Below, piece by piece: positions 6,885 to 49,697 of a DNA stretch of 64,000 bases. How positions within the stretch are numbered: position 1 is the first letter of the stretch; each line of letters starts with the position of its first letter. A program made the position numbers and the translations under genes. Origin of the DNA: a virus (taxonomy: Duplodnaviria; Caudoviricetes); IMG/VR virus record IMGVR_UViG_3300028886_000059, positions 52,415 to 116,414 of that record. One strand, given 5' to 3'. The notes below the pieces were generated by a model that saw only the letters and a list, made by a program, of their open reading frames with translations, made no database searches and had not been told where the DNA came from.

Positions 6885-6925
6885 CGCCTTTCTTTATCCT
6901 GTCGGCATCAGGTCTAAACGGTTTT
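6885..6925 (-). ncRNA. Conserved pseudoknot leader, copy A
   Basis: AAAACCGTTTAGA CCTG AT GCCGA CAGG ATAAAGAAA GGC. Confidence 0.6.
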
Positions 6926-6932
6926 GTCTTTG

Positions 6933-6964
6933 CAAAGGTACAAAATAATATTGAAACTACCAAA
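6933..6964 (-). promoter_or_regulatory. Promoter for the tRNA/ASCH unit
   Basis: TTTG ... TACCTTTG. Confidence 0.7.
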
Positions 6965-6999
6965 CTTTTTTGCAGAAAAATAAAGCAAATAAATTTATT

Positions 7000-7932
7000 T
7001 TACCATTCCGCAAAGATGTTATGACTGGCATTCACGACTTGCACGGAGTACTGAACACGGCCATCCACCTTGTTTCTGATGCTGTCTTTCCAGTATATCC
7101 TCGACTTCGGGGCTTTCGCTGCCACAATCTCCTGCACGTCATTGACGAACTTCACTATGCCGTCAAGCGTGATTGGCTTCTTGTTGTGCTTCTTGCCGCT
7201 TTCCAGCCCTATCTTATAGACATCGCAGAATCCCAATGTGGCCTTTATCATCTCCAGCGAATCATCCAAGTCTATCACAGGCTCGATGCTGGCAAAGGTA
7301 TGAACGCCGTATTCTTTGACCTTCGCCATCGCTTCCACACGCTGCATGTTCGTTGACGCATTCGGCTCAAGGTCATCCCTGCCTGTCAGCGTGAAACCGA
7401 CGCACAGGTTCTTACCGCCATTGACCAGCAGACGATGCCCACCGATTCCGTACACCCACTCCGAGCGTTTCGTCAGCATGGTAACTGGCACTGGAGGCAA
7501 ATCGTTTCTTCTGCTTCCATCCTCGTTACACCCCAATGCGATATAGGCACACCGCATGAATGTATAGAAGGTATCGACTGGCTGCTGTAGGCACGGGTCG
7601 CTGCTGAACGTAAAGAAGATGCCACGGCCATCTGCCATGATTCTTCCCCTGTACTTATCCAGTTCCTTCTCAAATACCTGCACGGCCTTGTTACATCCTA
7701 CGATGAATGCGAGTTTTCTTGAAGCGTCGCAGTCATTCTTGAACTTGACATCCTTTGCCGTCAGCTGAAACTCCTTTTTCAGTTGCGGGATTTTCTGACC
7801 CATTCCGTGACCTAACACGCCTTTCTTGCAGTAGCAATACTCACAGTCGTTTGAACACCCGACAAAGATATTTGCCGCCCAAGGAGCGTATTCGCGGGCT
7901 TTTCCCGCTGGCTGATACACAATTTTTCCCAT
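7000..7932 (-). CDS. Radical SAM protein
   Basis: CSNDCEYC (CxxxCxxC); SIEP motif. Confidence 0.85.
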   Translation of the reverse strand: MGKIVYQPAGKAREYAPWAANIFVGCSNDCEYCYCKKGVLGHGMGQKIPQLKKEFQLTAKDVKFKNDCDASRKLAFIVGCNKAVQVFEKELDKYRGRIMADGRGIFFTFSSDPCLQQPVDTFYTFMRCAYIALGCNEDGSRRNDLPPVPVTMLTKRSEWVYGIGGHRLLVNGGKNLCVGFTLTGRDDLEPNASTNMQRVEAMAKVKEYGVHTFASIEPVIDLDDSLEMIKATLGFCDVYKIGLESGKKHNKKPITLDGIVKFVNDVQEIVAAKAPKSRIYWKDSIRNKVDGRVQYSVQVVNASHNIFAEW

Positions 7933-7933
7933 A

Positions 7934-8173
7934 TTACCAAAACTTAGATAAATCCTTCTTGAATACTACATACTTCCCATCAGTCCGCGCCCTGCACTTG
8001 CCAATCTGCGCACGCACAGAATCGACATCGCAATGCTTCTGCTTCCTGACTACCCTTCCATGAAAGTAACATCCACGGCAGAACGATTCAGCCTCCTGAA
8101 CTTTCAGATGAACACCGTCGCAGGTGAACACGTCATTAATCGGTCTTTCCATATCACTTCGTTTTTTCGTCAT
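7934..8173 (-). CDS. Small Cys-rich hypothetical, paralog of 25711-25920
   Basis: Shared MER.I..V, C.GC.Y/F, C.A..R.D.K.V.F pattern. Confidence 0.6.
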   Translation of the reverse strand: MTKKRSDMERPINDVFTCDGVHLKVQEAESFCRGCYFHGRVVRKQKHCDVDSVRAQIGKCRARTDGKYVVFKKDLSKFW

Positions 8174-8375
8174 AGGGCTTGCCGCAGAACGGGCAGAACT
8201 TCACCTTGTCATCCAAACCGATATAGCGATGGTGCTTTGAATAGTTCCCGCTTTTAGTCATTGGCTTGAACCATCCAGTAACATATATCCGACCATCAGG
8301 CGATACGTTTTCCACGCCTCCCAAACCGTACTTCTTACAAAGTTCAGCCTTAATCTTCACTACACAGTCACACAT
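8154..8375 (-). CDS. Zn-finger hypothetical
   Basis: MCDC...FCPFCG. Confidence 0.7.
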   Translation of the reverse strand: MCDCVVKIKAELCKKYGLGGVENVSPDGRIYVTGWFKPMTKSGNYSKHHRYIGLDDKVKFCPFCGKPYDEKTK

Positions 8376-8381
8376 AGTCTA

Positions 8382-8723
8382 TTATTTCTTAAATGGATTC
8401 TGAAACACTAACTTTGTCTTTTTTATAAAATCCCTTCCAGCAGTTCCCTTCGGTGCTGTTTCTTCATACCAAACGACTCTCCGCAATAGAAGAGACTTTG
8501 AATTGATATGCAACCAGCACCGATGTTCCTTTGATGGGCTACAACATTCAAAGTCACAACAACATTCATCACGCCAAGGGTTATGTATGGCGATGCCAAA
8601 CACTTGCAAGAAAGACTGAATACGCGCAGAAAAAGCAATGTTTTTCCGAAAAGCAGTCTTCCAGTAATATTTTCTGTAATACCAAAATTTTTTCATACAA
8701 CTATTTCTTACGTCTGTTGGCAT
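8382..8723 (-). CDS. Hypothetical protein
   Basis: Operon packing. Confidence 0.5.
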   Translation of the reverse strand: MPTDVRNSCMKKFWYYRKYYWKTAFRKNIAFSARIQSFLQVFGIAIHNPWRDECCCDFECCSPSKEHRCWLHINSKSLLLRRVVWYEETAPKGTAGRDFIKKTKLVFQNPFKK

Positions 8724-8967
8724 AGATTTTCATGGCCGTCTTTTTGTTCCGTGCCATGATTCTCTCGCCGTGGATTATAAACTCATGCTCCTGCATGTTC
8801 ACACCATACATCTGATGATTCCGTGCCTTTTCCTCTTCGGTAAGTTCACGGCCTCCAGTGCCTCTATATCTTCTACGTGTGCCAGTATCATAGATAGACC
8901 TATCGCCAGCACCCGCAACAGCTGCCATCATCAGCGTAGCGGCCATCAATTTGCTAATCTTACTCAT
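8701..8967 (-). CDS. Hypothetical protein
   Basis: Operon packing. Confidence 0.65.
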   Translation of the reverse strand: MSKISKLMAATLMMAAVAGAGDRSIYDTGTRRRYRGTGGRELTEEEKARNHQMYGVNMQEHEFIIHGERIMARNKKTAMKIYANRRKK

Positions 8968-9097
8968 TTCGGTTCCTCCTCTGCCTTTTCAGGTCGCCAT
9001 TCGTTGAAGAATCCGCATTCACGGGCGGCATTGTCATGGTTGCCAAATCCCGTCTTATGCAAATCCAGTTCCTTGAACTCGGCCATCTTTCTTACAT

Positions 9098-9727
9098 TCA
9101 TAACCATTCGATTTTATTGTTTGTGATATAGTAGTGTGACTTGCAGGGAAATTCAAAGTTCCCTACAGACGGGCGCATCGTTACCGTTCCATCATCGTTC
9201 TTTGTCAGACTCCAGCCGCCAGCCTTGAACGGCATGACTACCAACTCGCCACATCCACAGGCGCACAGGTGGGATGTCGTTTCAAACTTTTCGCTGATAT
9301 ACAGTTTCCCGTATTCCAGCTGATGCGGCAAATGCTCGACAAAGACAGGCTCGATTCTTTCAAGTGGCTTTCCAAGCGTTTTCTCATTGTGAAGTTCAAT
9401 CCTGATGGCCTCCTGTAATGGCGGCAGAATCTTCGCGGCAAATCGCTTGCACGATGCCTCGACTTTTCGGCCTGTTGCTGTGTATGATATTCCGCTATAC
9501 ATCTTGTCACCGAAATAGTCAACACCGATATTAAGGATGAACTCGCGAAAATCATCCCTGCCTGTGCTGCCCCAGCAGAAATTGAAATTGCCCCAATCTG
9601 TGACAGCGAAGAAATAGCCGTCGCCAGTCAGAATTACACGGCCAAGAAAGCCGCCAAACTCATTGTGAAGAATATACATCCACACAACAACACCGTTTCC
9701 GTGATTATTTGTTATTACATTTTTCAT
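9098..9727 (-). CDS. Two-domain protein with C-terminal DUF6527-like domain
   Basis: Start MKNVIT at 9727; HLCACGCG...W...PSVGN...CKSHY. Confidence 0.65.
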   Translation of the reverse strand: MKNVITNNHGNGVVVWMYILHNEFGGFLGRVILTGDGYFFAVTDWGNFNFCWGSTGRDDFREFILNIGVDYFGDKMYSGISYTATGRKVEASCKRFAAKILPPLQEAIRIELHNEKTLGKPLERIEPVFVEHLPHQLEYGKLYISEKFETTSHLCACGCGELVVMPFKAGGWSLTKNDDGTVTMRPSVGNFEFPCKSHYYITNNKIEWL

Positions 9728-9728
9728 T

Positions 9729-9998
9729 TTAATCCAATTTGTGATATACATGAAACCACCTGTTATCCAGTGTGCGCACCGTACCGATAAACTCCAGCTT
9801 GCCGCGCAACATCTGACGTTCCTCGTACATGATGACCTGAACATCCTCAAAGTCATCATTACCCAAGTCTATCTCCGCAAACAGGCAGATAGTCGGCAAA
9901 AGGTTTTCCACCGTCAGAATCCTGTACCCCTTCGGCATCGTCACCTTCTGCACGACGTTACTCTGCGCCTGTAGCGGATATTTCATTATCGTTTTCAT
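9729..9998 (-). CDS. Hypothetical phage protein
   Basis: Operon packing. Confidence 0.7.
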   Translation of the reverse strand: MKTIMKYPLQAQSNVVQKVTMPKGYRILTVENLLPTICLFAEIDLGNDDFEDVQVIMYEERQMLRGKLEFIGTVRTLDNRWFHVYHKLD

Positions 9999-10639
9999 TC
10001 CGCTTTGTATTTCGGTGCTGGTATGCCCTTTGCACGGTTCAGCACATACTCATATACCTTGTTGCAGAAATCATCGCCAAGAAAGGCATTTGACTTTGCG
10101 GCTTCATCCAGCCCGCACTCAAAGAACTGCGTTTTTGTGATTGAAGAAACATGGTAACGCTTCTGAATGGCACTCATTCCGTTCAGGTTGCCGTTCTTTC
10201 GATACAGCATGACAACATCATTCAGATACCATTTGAAGTTTTCCTGCTTGCGTTCCTTGTTGGTCATCGTATGTGTGCCGCCTGTCTGCTGTTTCAGCGT
10301 GTCAACAGCAAACTCCAATGCTGCGATAAGGGTGTCAAGTTCACAATCACCGCCGAATGTCAGTTCAACGAGGCTTGCATCGTCAATTTCCACATCCTTA
10401 TAGCTGGCATCATCCACGGAGTAGCCCTTCACCCTGCATCTCATATCGGTGCTGGCTTCATCCTTAATCTTTAGATAAGTACGGCCACCATGCCCGCTGT
10501 CGCCACCACAATAGCCAGTTGTTCCAACTTCTACCGTGATAATGTTTGCACTGACAATCTCCTGCGACAAAGTTTCAATCTTCGCTCCGTCGATTTCGAT
10601 TTGACCCTTTACGGGTTCACTACTTCCATATTCAACCAT
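9995..10639 (-). CDS. Hypothetical phage protein
   Basis: GTTGYCGGDSGHGGRT motif; operon packing. Confidence 0.75.
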   Translation of the reverse strand: MVEYGSSEPVKGQIEIDGAKIETLSQEIVSANIITVEVGTTGYCGGDSGHGGRTYLKIKDEASTDMRCRVKGYSVDDASYKDVEIDDASLVELTFGGDCELDTLIAALEFAVDTLKQQTGGTHTMTNKERKQENFKWYLNDVVMLYRKNGNLNGMSAIQKRYHVSSITKTQFFECGLDEAAKSNAFLGDDFCNKVYEYVLNRAKGIPAPKYKAE

Positions 10640-12274: not shown

Positions 12275-12616
12275 TTAGAGGTGAGTGTATAAACCAGTCA
12301 TTTCGGTGAAAGTGGCCTGCACCATGTCGCAATAAACGCCCTTTGTCTCAGCGACTATTTTCTCAGTCGTTTCATAGGTCTTGCGGCTTGTGGTCTTACG
12401 AATCAGCTGCATAACATACGAATCCATTGCAGAATCATAAATCATCTTGAAGAAATTGGCAGATGTCTTGTTTCTACCTATATTCATAGAAAGAATGACG
12501 TTGCCACCCTTGCAGTCATAAACGGCCATCTTAACGCCTACCATGTAGCGAAAACTGCTACCACCTAACTGCTTCATCATTTCGTTGGCTATTGCCTTAA
12601 CTTGCTGCTTATCCAT
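12275..12616 (-). CDS. Hypothetical phage protein
   Basis: First gene after promoter and leader B; QLGG..F...TGLYTHL. Confidence 0.8.
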   Translation of the reverse strand: MDKQQVKAIANEMMKQLGGSSFRYMVGVKMAVYDCKGGNVILSMNIGRNKTSANFFKMIYDSAMDSYVMQLIRKTTSRKTYETTEKIVAETKGVYCDMVQATFTEMTGLYTHL

Positions 12617-12622
12617 GTTGTC

Positions 12623-12667
12623 TGTGCCTGTTTGTCATCAGTCGGCTCTTCTGTTCTAAATGGTTTT
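12623..12667 (-). ncRNA. Conserved pseudoknot leader, copy B
   Basis: 12621-12662 is identical over 42 bp to 19840-19881. Confidence 0.65.
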
Positions 12668-12683
12668 GTTCTTATTTCTGTTG

Positions 12684-12805
12684 CAAAGATAGTGATTATT
12701 TTCAGAACTACCAAATTTTTTCGTGAGTATTTTCAACCTAAATGCTTGTTTTAAGATTATTTAATAAATTAAATTGCTTTATTTATATAATAATGTGTAT
12801 CTTTG
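12684..12805. promoter_or_regulatory. Divergent promoters with operator-like boxes
   Basis: TATCTTTG on - (12684-12691) and + (12798-12805); boxes at 12693, 12724, 12765. Confidence 0.7.
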
Positions 12806-12834
12806 CACTCGAATTACAAAACGGAAATAGAATT

Positions 12835-13140
12835 ATGCTACGACTGAAAGAAATTTTGAAGGAGAAAGGTATGACTGGAGTACAACTTGCTGCACTCATC
12901 AAGAATGAAAAAGGCGAGCCAGTAACACCTCAGTACATCAACGGTATCGCCCGTGGACGTGGCAGCATATCCTTTAAGAAACTCAAGGAGATTGCAGATG
13001 CCCTTGGCGTGACGATGGCCGAATTGTTTGATGACTACAGGGAGCGCGATGCAAGCGTCGTGTTCTGCCCTAACTGCAATGAACGCCTGCGCCTTGTCAA
13101 AGACGATGACGATTCCATCAAGGCAGTATCAGAGAAATAG
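12835..13140 (+). CDS. XRE/Cro-type HTH regulator
   Basis: MLRLKEILKEKGMTGVQLA...IADALGV; C-terminal CPNC. Confidence 0.85.
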   Translation: MLRLKEILKEKGMTGVQLAALIKNEKGEPVTPQYINGIARGRGSISFKKLKEIADALGVTMAELFDDYRERDASVVFCPNCNERLRLVKDDDDSIKAVSEK

Positions 13141-13166
13141 GGAGTAATACTTCCGCACACTCCCTA
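13138..13166. terminator. Hairpin between convergent genes
   Basis: TAGGGAGT...ACTCCCTA. Confidence 0.55.
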
Positions 13167-13787
13167 TTTTACCCTTTGTCCTAATGCTATCTTGAACACA
13201 TCCTTATCAGGAGCACCCCATTCAGGATTACCCCTGCCAGCAGATATATTGAACACTTCAAACAGCATCCTGCGTGACCAGTCATCACGTTTCGGATAGC
13301 CCAGCGAAAACTCGACATGCGTATATGGTATCATAAAGGCCATAGGCGCAAATTCCATACCTCGCGGCAAATACATGTAATTGACCAGCCGCTTATTCCA
13401 AAATGCGTTGATTTCCCTGTATTCCTCCAACTTGATTCCAGCCTCTATCATCCTGTACCATTCTGCTTTCAATGACAGATGCAGGACGCGCTCCTCTTTC
13501 AGGTGCTCAAAAACGCACAGCAGGCCACGATAATAGTTGTGTACCTGTTCGGAGACCTCATCCAGCAGGATTTCTTCTATTGTCTTATCCGTACAGGTTG
13601 TGCTATCGCTATTCAGCCATTCGTGTTGCTCGATTTCCTCTTCCGTTTTCCAAACAGATTCATCAAGCGGTGTCAGCAGCCAGTCATCATGCTTTGGCAG
13701 CATTCTTGTGTTGATGCCTACATATTCCCCTTGGTCAACATAATCCAGCAGAACCATGTCTCTGACCGTTTTATACTTCATTTCCAT
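13164..13787 (-). CDS. Protein with C-terminal ASCH domain
   Basis: LHLSLKAEWYRMIEAGIKLEEYRE. Confidence 0.8.
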   Translation of the reverse strand: MEMKYKTVRDMVLLDYVDQGEYVGINTRMLPKHDDWLLTPLDESVWKTEEEIEQHEWLNSDSTTCTDKTIEEILLDEVSEQVHNYYRGLLCVFEHLKEERVLHLSLKAEWYRMIEAGIKLEEYREINAFWNKRLVNYMYLPRGMEFAPMAFMIPYTHVEFSLGYPKRDDWSRRMLFEVFNISAGRGNPEWGAPDKDVFKIALGQRVK

Positions 13788-14058
13788 AGACAGGCATTAT
13801 AAATAAATGTTCGGGATTCAGGATAACAGGCAGCGCATAGGCATTCTGTTTCATCACTTCAATGCGCTTTTCCGCTTCCTTCGCTACGGCTTCTTTATAT
13901 AACAGTTCACCAACCCGCAAATCAGCAGACTTATAGGCGATGACCCTTTTCATACCTTCATTGTAGTCGAATCTGTCACAGCCGCGTTTCTTCGCTTTAC
14001 GAATCCAGCGGACTAACTTTCCGATAGCCCGCCGCTCTTTCTTCGTTCTACCCTTCAT
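13771..14058 (-). CDS. Hypothetical protein
   Basis: Operon packing. Confidence 0.6.
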   Translation of the reverse strand: MKGRTKKERRAIGKLVRWIRKAKKRGCDRFDYNEGMKRVIAYKSADLRVGELLYKEAVAKEAEKRIEVMKQNAYALPVILNPEHLFIMPVYGNEV

Positions 14059-14905
14059 GTTTCATTATTTCATGTAACAGATAATCGTCGTGCTTCCAGC
14101 CGTCAATCTTGCCGAAAGCATCAATGTGCATAATGATGTAGTCGCCATCGTTCTCACAGCCACAGCACAGGATTTCGGGTACATATCCGCAATACTCCTT
14201 GACACAATGACCGTCATTATCAAGCACCGATATTCCGCATTCATCGCACACCTTATAATGGATGTCGGCAGTAATGCCCAACTCCCAATTCTTGACCTCT
14301 CCAGTCTTGATGTCGATTACGGGCTTCCAAATATAGCCGTCTTTGCCGTCAGGTATGGCACATGGCATTTTCGGATGTTCGTTGTCATCCCTTACACCAT
14401 TCAGCTTTCCATCTTCCCAATATCTTACTCCAGCAGACAGAACCAGTTGAGCCAAATTTGAATATGACTTCTTGCACTTCTGCTCCTTCCACCACTGAGG
14501 CTCCAGCATTTCAGGATTGTCATACTTATTGCCGACAACTTCAAACTCCTTGCCAAAGTCACGCCACCAGTCATCAGCAGGAACACCCCAAGGGTACAGC
14601 CATTCACGTTTCAAATCCTGAATGTTTGCCGTACAGAAAGCGGCACGGTTATCCTTGAATGCTACCAGCTTCGGATATTCCAGCCCGATAGCGATAATGT
14701 CACCGTCAAAGATTCGCTTGCCGTTCTTATCCTTCAATCCGATGTACTGGCCTATGGTATCTTCGGCCACATCAGACTCCAGCCCGCTACTTTCCTTGAT
14801 GGTCACTTTCTCGCACCGTGGGCGGTTGTAGTGAATCAAGTCACCTTCTACCCACTGGCCATCATGTTCGGCCTTTGCCCTAAACAGTATTTCCATAATC
14901 TTCAA
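14048..14905 (-). CDS. YopX-family protein with extra C-terminal domain
   Basis: ILFRAK, GQYIGLKDKNGKRIFDGDI, VVGNKYDNPE. Confidence 0.85.
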   Translation of the reverse strand: MKIMEILFRAKAEHDGQWVEGDLIHYNRPRCEKVTIKESSGLESDVAEDTIGQYIGLKDKNGKRIFDGDIIAIGLEYPKLVAFKDNRAAFCTANIQDLKREWLYPWGVPADDWWRDFGKEFEVVGNKYDNPEMLEPQWWKEQKCKKSYSNLAQLVLSAGVRYWEDGKLNGVRDDNEHPKMPCAIPDGKDGYIWKPVIDIKTGEVKNWELGITADIHYKVCDECGISVLDNDGHCVKEYCGYVPEILCCGCENDGDYIIMHIDAFGKIDGWKHDDYLLHEIMKHEG

Positions 14906-15108
14906 TGTTTTACCATACCTACATAAGTTTTTGTACGGCCATCAGTTTCATCTAAATGATAAACTTTGATGGTTGTTCCCAAAGGAGCACGGCGCACTAT
15001 CTTTTTGGCCAAATCGAGTGCTGCATCGTCATCCTTGCAATGTTTGTTAGCGCAATCGTCAATGCCCTTACCTTTGATGTATAAGAGATAACTTTCCATA
15101 TCAATCAT
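14902..15108 (-). CDS. Hypothetical protein
   Basis: Operon packing. Confidence 0.55.
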   Translation of the reverse strand: MIDMESYLLYIKGKGIDDCANKHCKDDDAALDLAKKIVRRAPLGTTIKVYHLDETDGRTKTYVGMVKH

Positions 15109-15247
15109 CCTTATTATTATTACCTGTATAATAGTTTATCGTCGGCCTTATTGCCTGTGCGATAATCACCAGCCCCAGCCAGCAAAGCAATGCAGTAATG
15201 GGGTGTGATTCAACAGCCACAAAGAACTCATTCATCTTTTCCAATTA

Positions 15248-15952
15248 TTATTTTTGATTTTCATTTACTATTTCATAAATCGGCTGAACCCTGCAATCAC
15301 CAAAGATGCTTAACTCCATATCGCAACATGTTCCATATCTGCGTTTGTATTCTTCATCCAGCTTTGATGATTCATCCCACACGCGGATTTTCTTGTTACG
15401 TCCTTTTCCAACATACTGCGCCACATAGACATGGCCTTTCACAGACATGCAGCCGTTGTCATATAATGCCCGAATGCGAAACTCACCATCCAGTAAACCA
15501 TTCTTGGGCGGCTGCGGTTTCTTCACTTCCAGCAGTTCGGGATTGTCGTAGCGATTACCTACGACTAACAGCCTGTCACGCCATGCCGTTAGTCCGATGT
15601 ACGATGAACTGCCGACTTGTTTCCCACGCATCCCACAATCATGCCAAACGACTACATAGAGAAAACCGTGCTCGCCATTGCGAACAATGTCACCCTCGTA
15701 TATTGATGTTCCATTGGAGTCTTTCAGTCCTGTGTTCTGCCCGATTGTATCAGGGTCGCAGATAGCGACTTCCTCGTAGCCAAAGACAAGAGCCACGTTC
15801 TCAAGTTTATCCACTTCTTCATCAAATGTAAGGTTACGATTGGTGATGATAACAAGTACTTTCTTGCCGTTATAACTGGCATTGTGCAAATCTCCATATT
15901 TCCACATGCCATCGTCATTGCACCTACCTCTGAAATTTATTGTTCTTTCCAT
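15248..15952 (-). CDS. YopX-family protein with extra C-terminal domain
   Basis: MERTINFRG, GQNTGLKD, IYEGDI, VGNRYDNPEL. Confidence 0.85.
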   Translation of the reverse strand: MERTINFRGRCNDDGMWKYGDLHNASYNGKKVLVIITNRNLTFDEEVDKLENVALVFGYEEVAICDPDTIGQNTGLKDSNGTSIYEGDIVRNGEHGFLYVVVWHDCGMRGKQVGSSSYIGLTAWRDRLLVVGNRYDNPELLEVKKPQPPKNGLLDGEFRIRALYDNGCMSVKGHVYVAQYVGKGRNKKIRVWDESSKLDEEYKRRYGTCCDMELSIFGDCRVQPIYEIVNENQK

Positions 15953-16349
15953 TGCAAAATTCGGGATTATCATAGATATTGCCGATTACCCAGCCTTTCA
16001 AAAACTCATAATCCAAGAAGTCGGTAATGCCATTCTTGACATTCCGAACAATCCAGCCATAGGCAGCGAAGCAATCCGTGACTGCTGGCCTGCCATGCCT
16101 TACATTGTGCTCTTTGTAGCCATATTCTACAACAACGACGTTTCCAAGAGGAGATTGGATGACATCGCCCTCATAGATTGGCGTGTCATTCTTGTCATGC
16201 AGACCAGTAAACTGCCCGACAGTCTTTTCATCGACTGTGCAATGCAAGCCGTCATCGTTAATCCAAACGAGGCCGTTGTCATGCAGCAAATCGCCGTGTC
16301 GCCACATTCCATCGTCTGTGCATTTGCCTCTGAACTTGATAATACGCAT
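15924..16349 (-). CDS. YopX-family protein
   Basis: MRIIKFRG, GQFTGLHD, IYEGD, IGNIYDNPE. Confidence 0.85.
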   Translation of the reverse strand: MRIIKFRGKCTDDGMWRHGDLLHDNGLVWINDDGLHCTVDEKTVGQFTGLHDKNDTPIYEGDVIQSPLGNVVVVEYGYKEHNVRHGRPAVTDCFAAYGWIVRNVKNGITDFLDYEFLKGWVIGNIYDNPEFCNGKNNKFQR

Positions 16350-16351
16350 AG

Positions 16352-16657
16352 CTATTTCTTTCTGTTTTTCACGCAGCCCTTGATAGAACCTTCCAGTATA
16401 GTTCTGTATTTCTTGCACTGTGCCGCAACCGTAGAAACGGCCATAGTGGTACTGCGAAGAATCAGCTTGTCAAAGTCCTGCGCGTCTTTCTGCGTCGCAT
16501 CGTAGATACACTGGCCTAACATTCCAGCAAGCGACTCAGAATCAATGCTGCCGACGTTTATAAACCCGTTATCATCACCACACATGATAAGGATGTTTTT
16601 GTTCTCACTTTTGGCCGCATCAGCAGCAGCCCTAATTGCCTGTTCTAACTTTTCCAT
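16352..16657 (-). CDS. Hypothetical protein
   Basis: Operon packing. Confidence 0.65.
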   Translation of the reverse strand: MEKLEQAIRAAADAAKSENKNILIMCGDDNGFINVGSIDSESLAGMLGQCIYDATQKDAQDFDKLILRSTTMAVSTVAAQCKKYRTILEGSIKGCVKNRKK

Positions 16658-16660
16658 ATT

Positions 16661-17164
16661 TCAATAATTTTCGTTTTGTCCTACATACACACACCCGTCA
16701 ACAGTTATTTGAGGGAATCGGCTTTCCGTATTAACCCTAATGTCAATCAGGTTGTTCTTTTCTATTTCATGCAGAATCTCCCTTACGCATGACTTTTTGG
16801 CTCTTTCTACCAATTCATTGATGCCACCAAATGCAGGGATTAAGTCCGCACGACCATTCCGACGCATCATTTCTTCACGTATATGTGCGTCGAATACTTC
16901 GCTTTCACCGATAAGCACATGGCTTTCAATACGAACAGAATTACGCGGCATCATAACGGTGTTCCGTCTTGAATTGGCTTCTTGATAATACATACAGCAA
17001 AAACGGTTGCAGTAGTCGATAGGCTTCAACCTGTCAGCATATTGCTCCAGCTTACCGCCGAGCCACCGTTTCCAAATCGGCTTTACATCATGTCCGTCTG
17101 CTATGCAAGCCAGCAGATACAGGATGCCAAATGATATATAAATAATCGCAATCGTCATAATCAA
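16661..17164 (-). CDS. Hypothetical protein with N-terminal TM helix
   Basis: Hydrophobic N-terminus. Confidence 0.65.
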   Translation of the reverse strand: MIMTIAIIYISFGILYLLACIADGHDVKPIWKRWLGGKLEQYADRLKPIDYCNRFCCMYYQEANSRRNTVMMPRNSVRIESHVLIGESEVFDAHIREEMMRRNGRADLIPAFGGINELVERAKKSCVREILHEIEKNNLIDIRVNTESRFPQITVDGCVYVGQNENY

Positions 17165-17391
17165 CAGTTTTTACAATCAACACAAATTCTATTTCCACAA
17201 CAGGGGCAGGTTATATAATACTGCCATTCATACATGTGGCTCTGCTGGCGTTCACATTCCGATTCTGTGTACTCCAGTTCCGCACCGCATTTATAGCATT
17301 TCGTCTGATTCACGGCCACAGGCTGCATCCTGTAATGCTTTGGCGGTTTCACTACCCTTACCATAATTCCTGCTGCTGTTGACCGAGCCAC
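17161..17391 (-). CDS. Zn-ribbon protein
   Basis: CYKC...CPCC. Confidence 0.65.
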   Translation of the reverse strand: MARSTAAGIMVRVVKPPKHYRMQPVAVNQTKCYKCGAELEYTESECERQQSHMYEWQYYITCPCCGNRICVDCKNC

Positions 17392-17798
17392 ACATCGAAC
17401 TTAATCATGGCATCTTCCATGTCGTACTGATTGCCGACAATTCGGGTCTTAGTGAAATCAAATCCCCTGCGAAGTGCCGTCTTGATGGTGACACGCTTTC
17501 CACGTTCTATCATACCCGATTCGTTCAGAGGTGCAATATACCAACCGCCCCACAGTTGAATGTAGTTTATCAGGTATGGCGTTTTCTGACCTTCTACAGC
17601 CAAAATGTCACGGTCAAAGATGAAATAATCCTCTTTGTCACGAAATCCCGTGTACTGGTCTATTGTGCCACGTTCCACCTGTACGGCCTTCGTGTTGTCA
17701 ACGCAAATCTCCATCGGCGCACGGTGCATCAGCAAGTCACCGTACACAAACTTTCTTGAAATAATCGCCCTTCCGCGAAAAAGAATAGTCCTATCCAT
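17358..17798 (-). CDS. YopX-family protein
   Basis: ILFRGR, QYTGFRD, IVGNQYD. Confidence 0.8.
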   Translation of the reverse strand: MDRTILFRGRAIISRKFVYGDLLMHRAPMEICVDNTKAVQVERGTIDQYTGFRDKEDYFIFDRDILAVEGQKTPYLINYIQLWGGWYIAPLNESGMIERGKRVTIKTALRRGFDFTKTRIVGNQYDMEDAMIKFDVWLGQQQQELW

Positions 17799-17799
17799 A

Positions 17800-18189
17800 T
17801 TACTTTTTGTTTATGATAAATCTTTGCCATGCACCGATATTCTCCATCAGCATATTGCCACCAACAATATTGAAGGTGTAATATGTTGTTCCGCTTTGGC
17901 CGTTGTAGGAGAAATTGTACCTGCCATTTTCGGCTGTCGTAACCACACATCTGCACAGGTACGCTTTATTCGATGTAGAAATAACGATATAAAGCTGGCC
18001 ATTCTTCGGCAATTCGCTTTCCAGCAGTTCATCATCAAATATGATAAACCCGTTCTTGTACTGAAACGTCATGCCAGCACGAAAGGCATCTGCAACCACG
18101 GCGGCAAACTCCTTCTCATGGTTATAGTCGTTTTCCGCTTTCTTGCAGACTGCATCCAGTTCATTCACATATTTTTCTGTATATCCCAT
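17800..18189 (-). CDS. Hypothetical protein
   Basis: Operon packing. Confidence 0.65.
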   Translation of the reverse strand: MGYTEKYVNELDAVCKKAENDYNHEKEFAAVVADAFRAGMTFQYKNGFIIFDDELLESELPKNGQLYIVISTSNKAYLCRCVVTTAENGRYNFSYNGQSGTTYYTFNIVGGNMLMENIGAWQRFIINKK

Positions 18190-18190
18190 A

Positions 18191-18577
18191 TTATTTGCCT
18201 TTTTTCTTGCATTTTATAATCAGGTTGCCAGTCTCTTCGTCATTACATGTCTGCAAGTTGTTCTCGCAGTTCCGACAGAAGTAACCGCCCATCAGAGGCT
18301 TGTCACCTTCAACATTCAGCACAGGGCATTCAACCCTTGCATTCGGTTTGATGACATACTGCTCATATTTGGGCTTTTCTACAGGTTCTTTGCCGACAGA
18401 CACTATTTCGCACTCCGTCGGCTCTTTGTCTATCCACTGCACATCGGGATGCTGCTTGTTATCAAGCGTCACCGACTGGCAGTTATGCTTTGTTTTCCAG
18501 CTTCCATTGTGCTTGAACGGTTTCTCGTCAGTCACCAACAGAATCAGGTCATTGTTTTGTTCACGAACTAAATACAT
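18191..18577 (-). CDS. Hypothetical protein
   Basis: Operon packing. Confidence 0.65.
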   Translation of the reverse strand: MYLVREQNNDLILLVTDEKPFKHNGSWKTKHNCQSVTLDNKQHPDVQWIDKEPTECEIVSVGKEPVEKPKYEQYVIKPNARVECPVLNVEGDKPLMGGYFCRNCENNLQTCNDEETGNLIIKCKKKGK

Positions 18578-18769
18578 AGTCTTTTCTATTTCAATTCGTA
18601 CTTTTCTTGAATATCTTCAGGAGTACAATCGTATTTGTTCCCTTTCTGTTCCGTTTCGGCCTTTGCTGGCTTCTCCAGCGTCACGGCCACCCTTGCATAT
18701 TGTCTGTTCATGTTTCTTTCCAGTTCTTTCCATTTCTTGCAACTCTTGAAAGAATTAGCAAGAATTATC

Positions 18770-19087
18770 TTAATCTTCGACCTTGCACCCGCAGGCTATC
18801 ATCCGCTGGTGCTCTGCCTTTACATTGTTGATGAATGCGTCCAATAACTCCTTGTTTTCTTTCGCCGTATAGAAGGTGTAAATATCAAGAGAGACAACAA
18901 CGAAATCCATGCTTCCATCGTCCTGCTCAACCTTCTTTGTCTGCGAGATAAAATGTGCACTAATGGCAATGCAGCCATCATCGTGATACTTGCGCACCCT
19001 GACTTCCAAATTCACTGTTTCCGCATACTTTCCCTGAATCGACTGCAATTTGCGGAGAAACTGCATCATCTTAGGTTTCTGTGCCAT
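18770..19087 (-). CDS. Hypothetical protein
   Basis: Operon packing. Confidence 0.65.
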   Translation of the reverse strand: MAQKPKMMQFLRKLQSIQGKYAETVNLEVRVRKYHDDGCIAISAHFISQTKKVEQDDGSMDFVVVSLDIYTFYTAKENKELLDAFINNVKAEHQRMIACGCKVED

Positions 19088-19258
19088 AGTCTGTATATAT
19101 TTTGTTGAACATCCGATTAACTAACGCCCGTACCTTTACGCCCTTGAGACGTGTAATCTTACGGCTACGGTGGCCACGCGGCTTTGCAGCGGCCTTTACA
19201 TCGTCAAACTCCCACGAATGGCGAATCTGCATGATTTTTCTGCCTGTTATCTTCATAA

Positions 19259-19531
19259 TCACTTGAATTGTTCTGTACCACATACCAGCACATCACCGAC
19301 AATCGCATTGGCCTTCCGTGCCATGTATGCAATCAGTGAAGCCTGTTTGTTATACGGCAAATTTCTAATCAGCCCCTCTTCGTTGACAATCATAATTTGG
19401 GTACTGCTTAGATGAATCACCTCGACATAACCTCCGACGATTTTCTGTGCCTCTTCAAGGCTGAAATCCGTGCCGTTCTTTGGCGTTATGCCATGATACT
19501 CGCCGTTTGCATGTATTACTGTTGCTGTCAT
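19259..19531 (-). CDS. DUF3846-like protein
   Basis: LEEAQKIVGGYVE, VNEEG, IVGDVLV. Confidence 0.8.
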   Translation of the reverse strand: MTATVIHANGEYHGITPKNGTDFSLEEAQKIVGGYVEVIHLSSTQIMIVNEEGLIRNLPYNKQASLIAYMARKANAIVGDVLVCGTEQFK

Positions 19532-19539
19532 AATCGAAA

Positions 19540-19577
19540 TGCCTGTTTACTGTCGGCTCGTCAGTTCTAAATGGTTG
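19540..19577 (-). ncRNA. Conserved pseudoknot leader, copy C
   Basis: CAACCATTTAGA ACTG ACGA GCCGA CAGT AAACA GGC. Confidence 0.6.
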
Positions 19578-19621
19578 TGATAAGGCCGCAGGGCTAATCC
19601 AGCGGCCTTGTATGCTGTTTA

Positions 19622-19834
19622 TTATAATTCTTCGGGCTTGTGCATTCTGTCGTACTCCTCATCCCAAATGGCATCCAGTTCATCCTCTTCTGCATAGACA
19701 TCGGTATTGTCGTACTTCAAAATCAGTCGCTTTGCGAAATTGATATGTGTCTTTGCCATTGCGCTGTCTGCGTTCATTATTGTCTGAGCGTCTGAAAGGT
19801 GGCTCATGATGGCGATTTGAATGTTGACTTGCAT
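19622..19834 (-). CDS. Hypothetical protein (start MQVNIQ)
   Basis: ATG lies just after leader D. Confidence 0.7.
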   Translation of the reverse strand: MQVNIQIAIMSHLSDAQTIMNADSAMAKTHINFAKRLILKYDNTDVYAEEDELDAIWDEEYDRMHKPEEL

Positions 19835-19841
19835 AATCTTC

Positions 19842-19885
19842 TGTGCCTGTTTGTCATCAGTCGGCTCTTCTGTTCTAAATGTTGT
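19842..19885 (-). ncRNA. Conserved pseudoknot leader, copy D
   Basis: Same core as copy B; promoter TACCTTTG at 19904-19911. Confidence 0.65.
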
Positions 19886-20054
19886 TGTTTCTTTTTGTTG
19901 GTACAAAGGTAAGCAAATAAATTGAAACTACCAAATTTTTCAGCGAAAAAATAAGGTTATTTGCTTTATTTAACAATTTAGCCAGCAAAAACAAAGAAAA
20001 AGGGGTGCAATATCGTTTTTTGCATCCCTATTATATATATGTATGGCTGAATTA

Positions 20055-26461: not shown

Positions 26462-26602
26462 TCGAGGGAGCAGGGCTCGAACCTGCGACACACACAATCC
26501 ATGTGTAACTTCATGTATGCGAGGCTGCTATTCTTGCGCTCGTATTTACAGCCATCCTCCCGTTCCATATACGGGTGTGCTAACCAACTACACCATCCCT
26601 CT
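26462..26602 (-). ncRNA. tRNA-like RNA with very long variable region
   Basis: GAGGGA/TCCCTC acceptor, GTGT/GCAC D-arm, CCCGT-ATATGGA-ACGGG arm, about 72-nt insert, GCAGG-TTCGAGC-CCTGC T-arm. Confidence 0.7.
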
Positions 26603-45969: not shown

Positions 45970-45973
45970 ATTG

Positions 45974-47842
45974 TTACTTGAAATATTTGTTTCTGAATGC
46001 CTGCGAAAACAGTGTGCGCTCTACCAGCGTATAGGTCTCTTTCTCCTTTGCCGTGATAGGCCGCTTCCACTTCAACCTGTTCTTTATCGTATCAATGGCC
46101 ACACGCACAATCGACTCAGCTGTTATGCCGTCTTTCGGCTGTAAGCCCTTTGCCATCATCTGACCCACGAACATCTTTATATATTCGTTTTCAGCCTCCA
46201 GTTCTTTCAGGTACATGGTCTTGAACTCCTTCAACAAACGCACAAATCTGTAATACTTTGACCTGTGCAGGCGCGAATTGAGGTAGTACTCAACATCTTC
46301 AATCTTCATGTCATCGTAATTCAGAATGCCGTCGTTGTCAAGGGCGACCCGAATTGAAACGCGATTCTTCCGCTTGCTATCTTCCCAATAACCGCGTACC
46401 TCATTCGTTGGCATGTATTTAATCAAGAAATCGTAATTATCCCAATAGCCTTTACGCAAACCATCATCCAGTTTCTCCAGTGTGTAGATTCCGCTGGTTG
46501 GCAGTTCAGGAGCAGACCATTTGTTTGTGTAGTATTTCACGAAATCATGCTCATCATTAAAATGGTAGCCGCGTTCCGTGCTATACTTCGCTACTATAAG
46601 CAACACGCGCTTACCTTCGCAAAGCTGGCTGTTCATAGACTTCATCCATTCTTCGATAGACGGCCTACCATCACCAAGTGCTCTGCTGGCATCCAGTTCA
46701 TACCGAAGCTGAATTTGTTCGTCTGTGAATCCTTCCATCTTGATAAGGCTACCTGTAACTGTGTGCGGCGAAAACACATCGGAGCGTTCTACCAATCCCT
46801 GCATCAAGAAAGCCACCTGCGTATATTGCTTGCGAAAACTTTCTGATTCAAGTGTTCCGCTGACATGGGTGTACTGCTTCTCCTTTTCAAGAATCTTTAG
46901 GTATTCTTCTTTGTTCGGGTACATCCTATCAAACAGATAGATATGTTCAGAATCTATCTTATAGAGGTTCTCACCGTTCCGAATCAGAAATACCGTATGA
47001 TGGTTTGGTATATTCATTATCCTGTTTGTCATCGCACCGCCAATGCTGCCATCTTCTGCATACTTCTTATCCGTCCGACGCGGCTTTACTGCCACCATAG
47101 ACTTCTCATCAGGCATGAACTCCTTGAAACGGTCATTCTGCAACAGCCATTCGTCGAACTTGTCAACCTTCTGCCAGTCGAAATCATCATCTATCAATGC
47201 CAGTTCCTCGTCCATAAAGATTACGGCCTGCCTGAATACTATCGGAGTGGTTTCGGGTGCTGGTTCGCCAGCGTGTAACTGTTCCACGCTTTCCTTGATG
47301 CCCGCATAGGTCTCGATGGTCTGAATGACATAATCCAGCCTTTTGACCTCACGCCCCATCTTTTCTATCATATCACGCATAGGCCGAAGCCGTGCCTCCA
47401 GTTCCCGTGTTTTCCGCTGAATCATTATATCAGCATACTTTCGGGTCTTTTCGGCCACGATTGCAGCCCTGTTGATATTCTCACGCAGAATCATCAAAGT
47501 GTCTTTACTGCCAAGCGACATCAAAGCCGTATCGCTGCTTTCCGTAAACTCTTCAAAGGTTTCTCCGTTCAGCAGTCTTTCGGCCATCTGCTTAATCTTT
47601 TCGACATCAACACCCAGCACACTGTAATAATGCAGGTTGTCTTTTCCGATTCTGTAATCCTTCTTGAAGGTGTTATCTATCACCTCCAGCGTTTCAGGGT
47701 TCACAGTGTCAACGACTACGCTCCCATCATCATTGACGGCCTTAATCCTGTAGATGTCATCACGGTCGTACAGGTAGCATCCGACCTTCAACTCTTCATT
47801 GACGGCCAGCTGCAAATCCGCTTTCTTGATGATTCCGTTCAT
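45974..47842 (-). CDS. Large hypothetical coiled-coil protein (622 aa)
   Basis: Long ORF; no motif recognised. Confidence 0.8.
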   Translation of the reverse strand: MNGIIKKADLQLAVNEELKVGCYLYDRDDIYRIKAVNDDGSVVVDTVNPETLEVIDNTFKKDYRIGKDNLHYYSVLGVDVEKIKQMAERLLNGETFEEFTESSDTALMSLGSKDTLMILRENINRAAIVAEKTRKYADIMIQRKTRELEARLRPMRDMIEKMGREVKRLDYVIQTIETYAGIKESVEQLHAGEPAPETTPIVFRQAVIFMDEELALIDDDFDWQKVDKFDEWLLQNDRFKEFMPDEKSMVAVKPRRTDKKYAEDGSIGGAMTNRIMNIPNHHTVFLIRNGENLYKIDSEHIYLFDRMYPNKEEYLKILEKEKQYTHVSGTLESESFRKQYTQVAFLMQGLVERSDVFSPHTVTGSLIKMEGFTDEQIQLRYELDASRALGDGRPSIEEWMKSMNSQLCEGKRVLLIVAKYSTERGYHFNDEHDFVKYYTNKWSAPELPTSGIYTLEKLDDGLRKGYWDNYDFLIKYMPTNEVRGYWEDSKRKNRVSIRVALDNDGILNYDDMKIEDVEYYLNSRLHRSKYYRFVRLLKEFKTMYLKELEAENEYIKMFVGQMMAKGLQPKDGITAESIVRVAIDTIKNRLKWKRPITAKEKETYTLVERTLFSQAFRNKYFK

Positions 47843-48117
47843 ATTCTAAATGGTTTTGAATGATTCTTATTTATACTTTTCTGCATACCAGTCCATCGCC
47901 ATGTCATCAAAATGGCCGACGCTGGCATCTTTGGATTCGTCACCGTATTTCGCGGCGACTTCCGCTCTTGATGAAATGTACTCGACCTTTTCACCGTCTT
48001 TTCTTTCAAACCGCATCTCATACCGCTCATCGTGTTCACAATAGCGTGACATGCTTTTCAAATCGTGCTCTATGGTGAAGAGCAAAAACTTCTTGTCTTC
48101 CATTTTTCCGTTTTTTA

Positions 48118-48360
48118 TTATAAGACCTTTTTTAATTTGTTCAGTGCCTCGTCGCGTGTCTTGCCCCAACAGGCGGGATTCACATTGCCGTCATTGTCGA
48201 TGATTTCAGCAGCAAGATACCAAAAATCATATTCCCATTCGCTGTATTCCTTCTTGGCTTCACGAATCGTTTCAAACTCATCCACAATATCCTGCGTGCC
48301 TTTGTTGCACACTGCAATACTGATACAGATGGTATTACCTTTATACTTAACTTCCTTCAT
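48118..48360 (-). CDS. Hypothetical protein
   Basis: Operon packing. Confidence 0.65.
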   Translation of the reverse strand: MKEVKYKGNTICISIAVCNKGTQDIVDEFETIREAKKEYSEWEYDFWYLAAEIIDNDGNVNPACWGKTRDEALNKLKKVL

Positions 48361-48371
48361 TTTCGTATGCT

Positions 48372-48890
48372 TTAGAATGTTTGACCCCAGCCCTCATTAC
48401 GATGGTATTCAGCCAGCTTGCAGCCGAAACTATTGTAATAATAGACCACTTCATCATGTTCCTTGGTGTAGTCACCCTCTTGGGCTGTCTGCTGTATGTA
48501 AGCCATGAAATCATCCTCGCTGACATGCGCCCTGTTGTACTCGTCGAAATCCAGTATCTTCATATTGAATGCTTTTGGTAGTTTCCTTGTCTGTTTCCTA
48601 AACCCGTTGTGCCACTTGCAGGCATCTATGAAATCCGCTGTCGTGACCTTTTCGCCATCGCCCAGCAGGTGCATCAGCTGTGCAAAAACTTCTATCGGGC
48701 AACTGTGCGCCCGTCCATTTATCTGAGCCGTCACAACAAAGGCATTCTGTCTGTTGTCGTATTCGCAGACGGCATCACATTCAAGGTAGGCTTTGGCAAG
48801 TTCTGTCATCGCCCTGCACTCTTGCATGTACTTACCCAATGCAACCTGTGCGCGTTGTGCGACCTTCCGCAGCTTTGTTTCATCCTTCAT
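48372..48890 (-). CDS. Hypothetical protein
   Basis: Operon packing. Confidence 0.7.
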   Translation of the reverse strand: MKDETKLRKVAQRAQVALGKYMQECRAMTELAKAYLECDAVCEYDNRQNAFVVTAQINGRAHSCPIEVFAQLMHLLGDGEKVTTADFIDACKWHNGFRKQTRKLPKAFNMKILDFDEYNRAHVSEDDFMAYIQQTAQEGDYTKEHDEVVYYYNSFGCKLAEYHRNEGWGQTF

Positions 48891-48903
48891 AAATCATCTG
48901 TAT

Positions 48904-49434
48904 TTAGAAACACTTATATACCTTATTATATATATTATCTCCGTGTAGTACCTTGATGACGGCCAGCATAGCGTTCTGCATATCATATCGCTTGTTGCAT
49001 TCATCAATCGTCATGTGGTCTTTATCCAGTAGGCTGTCGAAATACTTTTTGAAGTCTTTCAGCCCGAAGTATTTGGCAACCTCTGAGCATACCTCAGTGT
49101 GCAAGTTATCGGCGGTCATATCCTGCCACTCCATAACCTTCTGAATGAATGTTTTCTTCTTTCTTGATTCGCTTACCTGCGGCATCTTACCACCCCAAAA
49201 AGAACTTTCTTTGCATGTATAGATAGGATTTCCGCCCGTATGCTGATAGCCATTGGATTCTGTTACCCAACCGTAAAAGCGAACATCCTCATTCACCTCC
49301 GACCATACAGTATTATAATAAGAACTGCTAACAGCTTCGATGGCCTCTGTCAGACTGTTATAGACGTTGTGAACACAATTCGTACCGATTGTTACTGCAA
49401 CCTTATCGAATTTGTTGATGACTAATTGTTTCAT
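48904..49434 (-). CDS. Hypothetical protein
   Basis: First gene after leader E. Confidence 0.75.
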   Translation of the reverse strand: MKQLVINKFDKVAVTIGTNCVHNVYNSLTEAIEAVSSSYYNTVWSEVNEDVRFYGWVTESNGYQHTGGNPIYTCKESSFWGGKMPQVSESRKKKTFIQKVMEWQDMTADNLHTEVCSEVAKYFGLKDFKKYFDSLLDKDHMTIDECNKRYDMQNAMLAVIKVLHGDNIYNKVYKCF

Positions 49435-49440
49435 ATCTCC

Positions 49441-49480
49441 TGTGCCTTTGTTTATGCTGTCGGCGGCAGTCTAAATGTTG
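49441..49480 (-). ncRNA. Conserved pseudoknot leader, copy E
   Basis: CAACATTTAGA CTG CC GCCGA CAG CATAAACAAA GGC. Confidence 0.6.
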
Positions 49481-49499
49481 TTGTTTCTTTTATCTGCTG

Positions 49500-49636
49500 C
49501 AAATTTACGAATAATATTTGAATTGACAATGAAAAATTTTGTTTTTAACACAAAATTAACCTTTGCTAAATAAAGTTATTAAATTAAAGATTTTCAGCAA
49601 AATGTTTTGATAATAAATTTATTTGATTTATCTTTG
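49500..49636. promoter_or_regulatory. Divergent promoters
   Basis: TAAATTTG (-) 49500-49507; TATCTTTG (+) 49629-49636. Confidence 0.7.
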
Positions 49637-49655
49637 CACCCACAAATCGAAAGCA

Positions 49656-49697
49656 AAACCATTTAGAAGCGGATGCGCCAACCGTTCAAACAGGCAC
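49656..49697 (+). ncRNA. Conserved pseudoknot leader, copy F
   Basis: AAAACCATTTAGAA GCGG ATGC GCCAA CCGT TCAAACA GGC. Confidence 0.6.

Follow-up and report, generated by a model that had tools for sequence, protein, structure and literature searches.

A candidate pseudoknot-forming leader RNA repeated eleven times in a temperate phage of rumen Prevotella

Introduction

The preQ1-I and SAM-II riboswitches consist of a hairpin of few base pairs (bp) whose loop pairs with a short downstream strand across an A-rich connecting loop; the 3' strand lies at the ribosome-binding position, and the whole measures about 35-45 nucleotides (nt). A leader element of the same layout is described here from positions 52,415 to 116,414 of the IMG/VR virus record IMGVR_UViG_3300028886_000059, i.e., from the right-hand 64 kb of a 116,414-bp record; this stretch of 64,000 nt is called the window in the following. 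Unlike the two riboswitches, the element has a variable first loop, occurs in up to 11 copies per phage genome, and shows neither similarity to them in sequence or model nor a link to queuosine or S-adenosylmethionine (SAM) genes, and the ribosomes of its host do not pair with Shine-Dalgarno (SD) sequences.

Leader structures that abut the initiation region also set the translation of early genes in phage T4, among them the pseudoknot of the gene 32 mRNA, the hairpin of gene 43 and the targets of RegA, which acts on many mRNAs at once. These operators are read by phage-encoded proteins, and those of genes 32 and 43 are single-copy and autogenous, whereas no phage gene was found to co-occur with the present element, which exists also as a single copy in other phages. 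The rpsO (S15) operator of Escherichia coli, a pseudoknot just upstream of and overlapping the initiation region, controls the function of the 30S subunit; it differs from the element in being cellular, single-copy, regulated by the protein of its own gene, and unrelated in sequence. The nut sites of phage lambda are laid out as boxA followed by boxB. Like these sites and the put sites of HK022, the element is a promoter-proximal RNA in which a conserved single-stranded box is followed by a short hairpin and which is repeated at the heads of operons. It departs from nut and put RNA by a fixed distance to the ATG, by a loop that could pair with a downstream triplet, and by one copy that stands between genes without a promoter; the 5-bp stem and the GNRA-like pentaloop of boxB were not found in it, since its stem has 3-4 bp and its loop 7-9 nt.

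In the PeSL cassettes of T4-type phages, the stem-loop reportedly lies upstream of the promoter. Two reports describe these cassettes as repeated regulatory units ahead of small variable open reading frames (ORFs) with signs of recombination at the cassette borders (PMC2839356, PMC4122927), and one of them calls PeSLs composite promoter-terminator motifs (PMC4122927). The present element shares the repetition ahead of small variable ORFs and the recombination signs, but its structure follows the promoter, at 7-12 nt from the ATG, and bears marks of selection on RNA pairing.

Little has been charted of the structured RNAs by which phages of Bacteroidota regulate the mRNA that carries them, and the choice and control of start sites on the mRNAs of hosts that ignore SD sequences are largely unknown. 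As a test case the element is compact, at about 45 nt; it is backed by covariation, is placed exactly at the ribosome-binding position, and in some phages precedes one operon only, in a single copy, versus 11 copies in another. With a probability of about one half, it is a pseudoknot that acts on its own mRNA to control the initiation of translation, as judged from sequence comparison.

Leader copies in the phage genome

Each of the six copies in the window (A to F, Table 1) is about 45 nt long. From the 5' side, an A-rich run whose last letters are AACC(A/G) leads into a TTTAGA box, and the stem strand CNG follows after 0-2 nt; the loop has 2 or 4 variable bases before GCC and (G/A)A and is closed by the complementary strand. 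An A-rich linker of 6-10 nt then connects the hairpin to GGC, from which a further 8-12 nt lead to the ATG. An original prediction, made from the letters of the window, had placed six copies close to start codons and had listed their stem pairs. All six positions could be reproduced, with the parts of every copy mapped to the base; the proximity of GGC to the ATG held in 6/6 copies, and the listed pairs were correct. The count itself was too low, as the full record holds 11 full copies; the five beyond the window lie at genome positions 10597, 16962, 43442, 51272 and 51505, all on the minus strand.

A strict pattern gave six matches in the genome and none in a reversed control, and a covariance model built from nine copies returned every copy with an E-value of 1e-8 to 1e-13; the copies are therefore not due to chance. 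The next-best match to the nine-copy model (E 0.055) was itself a partial copy of the motif. Two 'box-only' partial copies were recorded, one in the window (Table 1) and one at L049:16593; in these, an ATG comes 4-12 nt after AAAACCATTTAGA with no hairpin between them.

Promoters of the Bacteroidota type were found ahead of 9 of the 11 copies, including the five window copies for which a TAnnTTTG promoter had been proposed; the remaining two (D and K) are operon-internal and promoterless. A TTTG -33 element is present as well at copies A, B, C and F, while copy E has the -7 box only. Between the TAnnTTTG box and the nine promoter-borne leaders the distance varies from 12 to 23 nt, whereas the distance from GGC to ATG is 7-12 nt, mostly 9-10 nt, in 51 of the 51 copies that could be parsed, with a spacer that drifts freely in sequence.

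Copy K (genome 51272-51215; L051:11215-11272) is located between two ORFs without a promoter or terminator upstream, and the TAG within its TTTAGA box is the stop codon of the preceding 64-aa ORF. In one variant copy of the alignment (ATTAAA, L356), the TAG of the box is replaced by TAA, so that a stop codon is kept. The first genes after the leaders are unrelated to each other and encode an Amidoligase_2 enzyme, a DUF3846 protein, a WYL_2 protein, uncharacterised proteins and a tRNA. The last of these had been proposed to be headed by copy A, and this copy indeed has a promoter on one side and tRNA-Val(GAC) on the other, separated from the tRNA by no more than a 7-codon ORF.

Covariation of the hairpin

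The alignment comprised 55 distinct copies from the phage, a sister phage, rumen metagenomes, Prevotellaceae proviruses and 55-kb relatives. Part of it was retrieved with a pattern fixing TTTAGA, CWG, GCCGAC and AGGC; CWG was fixed on both sides without complementarity being demanded, and a mismatched member would still score well above the threshold of the model. No such member was seen, and the 3-bp core stem was paired in 100% of the cells of the 55 rows. The middle pair was UA in 30 rows, AU in 22, GC in two and CG in one; the outer pair showed one change from CG to UA, and the inner pair a change from GC to CG in two rows of one lineage. The hairpin is supported by compensatory changes at all three core pairs. 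None of 500 shuffles reached the observed covariation of the stem, and pairing collapsed when the stem partner was slid by 1-3 columns. An optional fourth pair behaves alike: opposite a 5' G there is C or T in 16 of 18 copies, and opposite a 5' C there is G in both copies that have it, compared to only 7 of 31 copies with C or T opposite a 5' A (Fisher p = 1.3e-5 versus 5' G).

The proposed loop-tail helix

Loop GCC and tail GGC are invariant in 53 of the 55 distinct rows, including copies that had not been selected by the search pattern; by itself, this invariance speaks neither for nor against pairing. The amidoligase leader of the 55-kb phages G205-G208, however, carries GGC in the loop and GCC in the tail within an otherwise unchanged architecture: the box is kept, the loop has 7 nt, the linker 10 nt and the spacer 9 nt. 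From the aligned sequences, this swap is read as a compensatory flip of the middle pair (CG to GC) and as one independent event, and it is hard to reconcile with a separate outside partner for each triplet. Since a single compensatory event is at hand, the GCC:GGC helix is supported, not proven. The original prediction of a covarying pseudoknot claimed too much for the window itself, in which stem 1 alone covaries; stem 1 covaries strongly in the alignment, too. The second helix is constant in the 53 rows named above, but is made plausible by the one swap in a diverged lineage.

The first loop measures 2-4 nt, the junction 2 nt and the third loop 6-12 nt. By general pseudoknot geometry, such lengths are compatible with helices of 3-4 bp and 3 bp. 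Several unpaired bases are strongly conserved across lineages with diverged spacers, namely TTAGA, (G/A)A after the loop GCC, and AAA(C/T)A in the linker.

A proposed control of translation initiation

In Bacteroidia, SD sequences go unrecognised by the ribosomes, and mRNA structure and the identity of several nucleotides tune initiation; which nucleotides, and where, is left unspecified in the abstracts of these reports (PMC7797042, PMC6847099). The constant distance from GGC to ATG, set against the variable distance to the promoter and the promoterless copies D and K, ties the element to the start codon. In the mechanism proposed here, the hairpin of 3-4 bp would form and its loop GCC would pair with the GGC 7-12 nt ahead of the AUG, giving a small H-type pseudoknot whose 3' edge would take the usual place of the SD helix, in a host whose ribosomes lack SD pairing. 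With its 3' strand at about -12 to -10, the fold would either block or position the 30S subunit, and the folded element would set the expression of the first gene of each operon. At copy K, a ribosome terminating on the hairpin would melt the fold and couple the two genes. We lean towards repression that is relieved by unfolding, because the fold is weak, its surroundings are A-rich and unstructured, and the layout of copy K resembles that of coupled genes.

As the fold is weak on its own, it would be expected to be stabilised or read by a factor from outside the phage, which may be a host protein, the ribosome itself or a metabolite. In a comparison by tblastn only, with 80 kb around the G054 prophage, no phage ORF was common to G000, the G054 prophage region and G205 and at the same time missing from the module-less G024 and G014. 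In G205, as in the proviruses, the module occurs only once. The lack of a co-occurring gene and the single-copy cases argue against a dedicated repressor of the RegA type; they speak rather for a metabolite, a factor of the host or an effect of the fold by itself.

Several points weigh against control of translation by a pseudoknot. The repeats, their positions and their pairings were read directly, but the action on translation, its direction and the factor we infer from them; likewise, the 'regulatory RNA' of the original prediction is a real, repeated element at the RNA level with a covarying hairpin, to which the word 'regulatory' adds an inferred role. The copies are paralogues that exchange sequence, so that cell counts overstate the number of independent events, and part of the alignment came from a pattern in which box, stem, GCCGAC and AGGC were fixed. 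The second helix depends on one event in one lineage, whose four sequences are identical across loop, linker and tail triplet. The spacing to the ATG may be partly inherited, as the ATG-proximal part of a simpler leader (see below) is itself conserved. Without a partner, a stem of 3-4 bp and a helix of 3 bp are marginal, and the folding energies did not differ from those of shuffled controls (z -1.8 to +1.4). RNAfold often chose GCC:GGC over the hairpin as the minimum-energy pairing, ViennaRNA being unable to fold pseudoknots. Folding no better than shuffled sequences, together with this preference, indicates a marginal fold that is probably dependent on Mg2+, on a ligand, on a protein or on the ribosome.

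Should the partner be a small molecule, the element would be a riboswitch: a ligand would stabilise the loop-tail helix, as in preQ1-I and SAM-II, and would switch the translation of the amidoligase operon and, in this phage, of ten further operons. Topology and size match the smallest pseudoknot riboswitches, with the 3' strand at the ribosome-binding position, and the strong conservation of unpaired TTAGA, (G/A)A and AAA(C/T)A despite the divergence of the spacers would suit a riboswitch, as would the lack of a co-occurring phage-encoded partner. The single-copy site, moreover, is always upstream of the gene pair for an amidoligase and a glutamine-amidotransferase-like protein, which fits the logic of metabolic riboswitches. 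We nevertheless regard a riboswitch as unlikely, given that no riboswitch model matches, that the first loop segment is constant neither in sequence nor in length (2 or 4 nt), that the genes downstream are functionally unrelated in this phage, and that close amidoligase homologues occur without the module. Equally doubtful is the broader idea of a new minimal class of pseudoknot riboswitch, or of a direct sensor for the state of SD-blind ribosomes, which a temperate Prevotella phage would have copied onto eleven leaders so that one host signal gates much of its translation. As a sensor, the element would be a rare case of a single RNA switch that serves an entire phage genome; as a fold that positions or represses ribosomes, it would bear directly on SD-independent initiation. 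In either case, it is a candidate for a new RNA family and might be used to control expression in the genetics of Prevotella and Bacteroides.

The position of the 9 promoter-borne copies, 12-23 nt downstream of promoters, and the order of a single-stranded box and a short hairpin, which recalls boxA-boxB, would also suit processive antitermination of the nut/put kind, in which box and hairpin load a factor on RNA polymerase, or act on it directly, and allow internal terminators to be read through. Copy D (Table 1) and three metagenome copies follow directly on a terminator-like hairpin. A fixed distance of 7-12 nt to the ATG with a free spacer is unexpected for nut or put sites, however, and stem and loop are unlike boxB in size, as stated above. 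The compensatory loop-tail swap points to intramolecular pairing instead of a loop read by a protein, and copy K has neither a promoter nor a terminator upstream. Antitermination is therefore considered quite unlikely, and control of translation initiation is preferred.

Contigs from RNA libraries

RNA-library data consisted of assembled contigs from bovine gut, which show only that these loci are present in the assemblies. ORF C, leader D and ORF D are covered by one contig, and copies A and D are crossed by contigs without a break. Contigs from two runs of a single bovine-gut sample cover the ORFs behind copies B and C and stop at the final C of loop GCC (window positions 12644 in copy B and 19863 in copy C), and in one of the runs the contig passes directly into the Illumina adapter, indicating a fragment end. 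Copies B and C share an identical stretch of 42 nt, and one contig ends exactly at the k-mer limit. As a lead only, the contig end may mark a discrete 5' end of an RNA, a stop of reverse transcription, or an assembly artefact caused by the 42-nt repeat.

Such ends would be produced if the element were a site of RNA processing or stability, at which an endoribonuclease cuts the hairpin loop and thereby makes the mature 5' end of the downstream message. The shared end position and the adapter are a weak hint in this direction from one sample, and cutting of a multi-gene transcript would fit the internal copies D and K. We consider processing decidedly unlikely, because the data are contigs instead of reads and come from one sample, assembly breaks are to be expected near the stretch shared by B and C, with one contig at the k-mer limit, other contigs continue through copies A and D, and cleavage would leave both the conserved GGC and the compensatory swap unexplained.

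Comparison with known RNA families

Searches of Rfam covered the whole window, two short stretches (161 and 441 nt) and locus L356, and none of the leaders matched a family at gathering thresholds or at E-values up to 10; the original prediction, too, had recognised no match. The preQ1-I model (RF00522) gave no match in the two short stretches even at E up to 10, nor in the whole window, and SAM-II, SAM-V, fluoride, guanidine-III and other pseudoknot riboswitch models of Rfam were likewise unmatched. An association with queuosine or preQ1 genes was not found among the genes downstream, which are those for amidoligase, DUF3846, WYL_2, tRNA and uncharacterised proteins. In the literature searched on leaders of Prevotella and rumen phages and on a DUF2693 RNA motif, the element is undescribed. 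By its sequence, it can be regarded as a candidate new RNA family whose architecture is of a familiar kind. It is unusual in reaching 11 copies per genome, in having spread as promoter-leader cassettes, and in having a host without SD pairing.

Origin and recombination of the cassettes

Twelve homologues of the amidoligase with identities of 53-77% gave no further variants of the pseudoknot; those at 67-77% that were looked up carry the ordinary module, and the others (53-64%) have unrelated leaders. Many module-less amidoligase leaders read like the present leader minus the segment from the hairpin to GG, and for this reason a simpler, widespread leader appears to have gained the module by insertion of about 26-30 nt. 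At loci L267-L345 of the 55-kb relatives, another conserved leader is found, which is A-rich and contains CAATTTAAA and then CACACGATT ahead of the ATG of the amidoligase gene, often after a GCAGGGC-GAAA-GCCCTGC hairpin; the present leader resembles this leader with the hairpin module added. The amidoligase site is probably the ancestral single-copy site. To judge from the copies in this phage lineage, module and promoter look as if they were later copied together onto ten more operons.

Orthologous genes in related phages carry different subtypes of the module. In RNA libraries, contigs of a related strain switch partner exactly at promoter/leader borders, as where 12670 is joined to 19904 with 9 other letters between, and loose contig ends lie at the promoter borders 6931/6932, 6964, 12674, 12714 and 19904. 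The differing subtypes on orthologues and the partner switches at borders indicate that the cassettes recombine.

Exchange of this kind raises the question whether the structure is merely the passenger of a mobile promoter-leader cassette similar to PeSLs, with the repetition a result of spread and recombination, or a related operator at the DNA level. Promoter, A-rich spacer and leader are indeed repeated as a unit ahead of small variable ORFs, the subtypes on orthologous genes imply exchange between copies, partners are switched at the borders (12670 to 19904), and the PeSLs of T4-type phages offer a precedent (PMC2839356, PMC4122927). Repeated compensatory changes in a stem of 3 bp and the loop-tail swap nevertheless show selection on RNA pairing, and the module is kept as a single copy in other phages and proviruses; a passenger role, or a DNA operator with all four Watson-Crick pair types at one position, is accordingly very unlikely. 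As the main explanation, a palindromic DNA operator was ruled out by these four pair types, which are unlike a protein-read DNA palindrome, and a peptide-coding function was ruled out as no frame is conserved across the copies.

Other leaders of amidoligase genes and of diverged lineages were noted. An unrelated leader with a 7-bp hairpin (CCGTGAT ... ATCACGG) precedes a further amidoligase homologue at L512:180-300; the amidoligase gene seems to have received upstream structures that differ from lineage to lineage. In the AT-rich diverged lineage L356, a GC-rich repeat of about 60 nt stands ahead of each leader, after the previous ORF (1725-1790 and 2145-2205), and matched no Rfam family.

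Features of the window

The positions of leaders, promoters and adjoining features are given in Table 1. The arrangement of a terminator-like hairpin ahead of leader D recurs in metagenome relatives. In related strains, 174 additional letters are present exactly at 6877/6878 (region 6854-6877 of the window, leader A), and in metagenome relatives the equivalent of leader A precedes an ORF starting with MYYV. Taken together, the insert and this ORF suggest that a small gene appears to have been lost after leader A.

Table 1. Leader copies and associated features in the window (position 1 is the first letter of the 64,000 nt)
Feature	Position	Strand	Box	Stem strands	Loop GCC	Tail GGC	ATG	Box to ATG	Remarks
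tRNA-Val(GAC)	6647..6720	-							first gene 3' of leader A and mini-ORF
Leader copy A	6875..6930	-	6918-6913	CTG 6911-6909 / CAG 6901-6899	6906-6904	6888-6886	6877-6875	6918-6875	4th pair C-G; 7-codon ORF, then tRNA-Val
Promoter of copy A	6933..6964	-							TTTG ... TAnnTTTG
Leader copy B	12614..12672	-	12660-12655	CAG 12653-12651 / CTG 12641-12639	12646-12644	12628-12626	12616	12660-12614	113-aa ORF, phrog_9437
Promoter of copy B	12684..12715	-							
Leader copy D	19529..19576	-	19571-19566	CTG 19564-19562 / CAG 19552-19550	19557-19555	19543-19541	19531	19571-19529	4th pair A-T; DUF3846 protein; operon-internal, promoterless
GC-rich 8-bp hairpin	19582..19609	-							terminator-like, without T run; between ORF C and leader D
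Leader copy C	19832..19891	-	19879-19874	CAG 19872-19870 / CTG 19860-19858	19865-19863	19847-19845	19834	19879-19832	70-aa ORF
Promoter of copy C	19904..19935	-							
Partial copy, 5' box AAAACCATTTAGA alone	47840..47862	-							4 nt ahead of the ATG of a 622-aa ORF; without hairpin module
Leader copy E	49432..49487	-	49475-49470	CTG 49469-49467 / CAG 49459-49457	49464-49462	49446-49444	49434	49475-49432	176-aa ORF
Promoter of copy E	49500..49507	-							-7 box TAAATTTG; without clean TTTG -33 element
Promoter of copy F	49606..49636	+							divergent from E
Leader copy F	49650..49710	+	49662-49667	CGG 49670-49672 / CCG 49682-49684	49677-49679	49693-49695	49708	49662-49710	4th pair G-T; 116-aa ORF

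Phage, host and distribution

The record is that of a temperate tailed phage and encodes a large terminase subunit, an integrase, a repressor-like protein, a helicase and a reverse transcriptase. Its host is a Prevotella (Prevotellaceae) of the cattle rumen. Related elements were found by exact-pattern scans in two uncultured Prevotellaceae genomes, and the sequencing runs that hold DNA of the phage are bovine or other gut metagenomes from several studies. A sister phage of 119 kb has the same set of copies with few substitutions. Copies were absent from 50 phages with a terminase at about 65% identity, where model R1 gave matches at chance level only, and 7 kb of the window had no match by blastn among the INPHARED phages.

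Among 151 sampled Prevotellaceae genomes, model R2 detected a true copy in one (G054). A scan rich in rumen metagenomes and model searches added 42 further matches on related contigs, often several per contig. Prevotellaceae proviruses and the 55-kb phages G205-G208 have a single module, always ahead of the gene pair for the amidoligase and the glutamine-amidotransferase-like protein. A loose pattern scan of viral sequences gave, among the matches listed, one true new locus (L259) amid noise, and a further viral scan returned only lineages already found. Within the sequences searched, the element is confined to a small set of rumen Prevotellaceae phages and proviruses and is not shared by phages of Bacteroidales at large.

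A distant candidate was recorded on a Prevotellaceae chromosome (L401; G154:C1:1851953-1852009), after a promoter and ahead of a gene for a DGQHR-domain protein. It has a 4-bp stem CTGG/CCAG, a loop AGCGCA, a GCG/TGC triplet pair with the tail TGC 9 nt ahead of the ATG, and a box TTAAAG in which TAG is likewise changed to TAA. At an E-value of 0.009 per genome, about one false match is expected among 151 genomes, and this unconfirmed candidate was not relied on as a member.

Two observations concern other parts of the window. The product of the ORF at 61737-63245 (-) matches phage reverse transcriptases (phrog_1423, E 4e-54). A tRNA match in Rfam at 26462-26602 (-), of 141 nt and 40 bits and not called by ARAGORN, may represent a tRNA gene with a long insert or intron.

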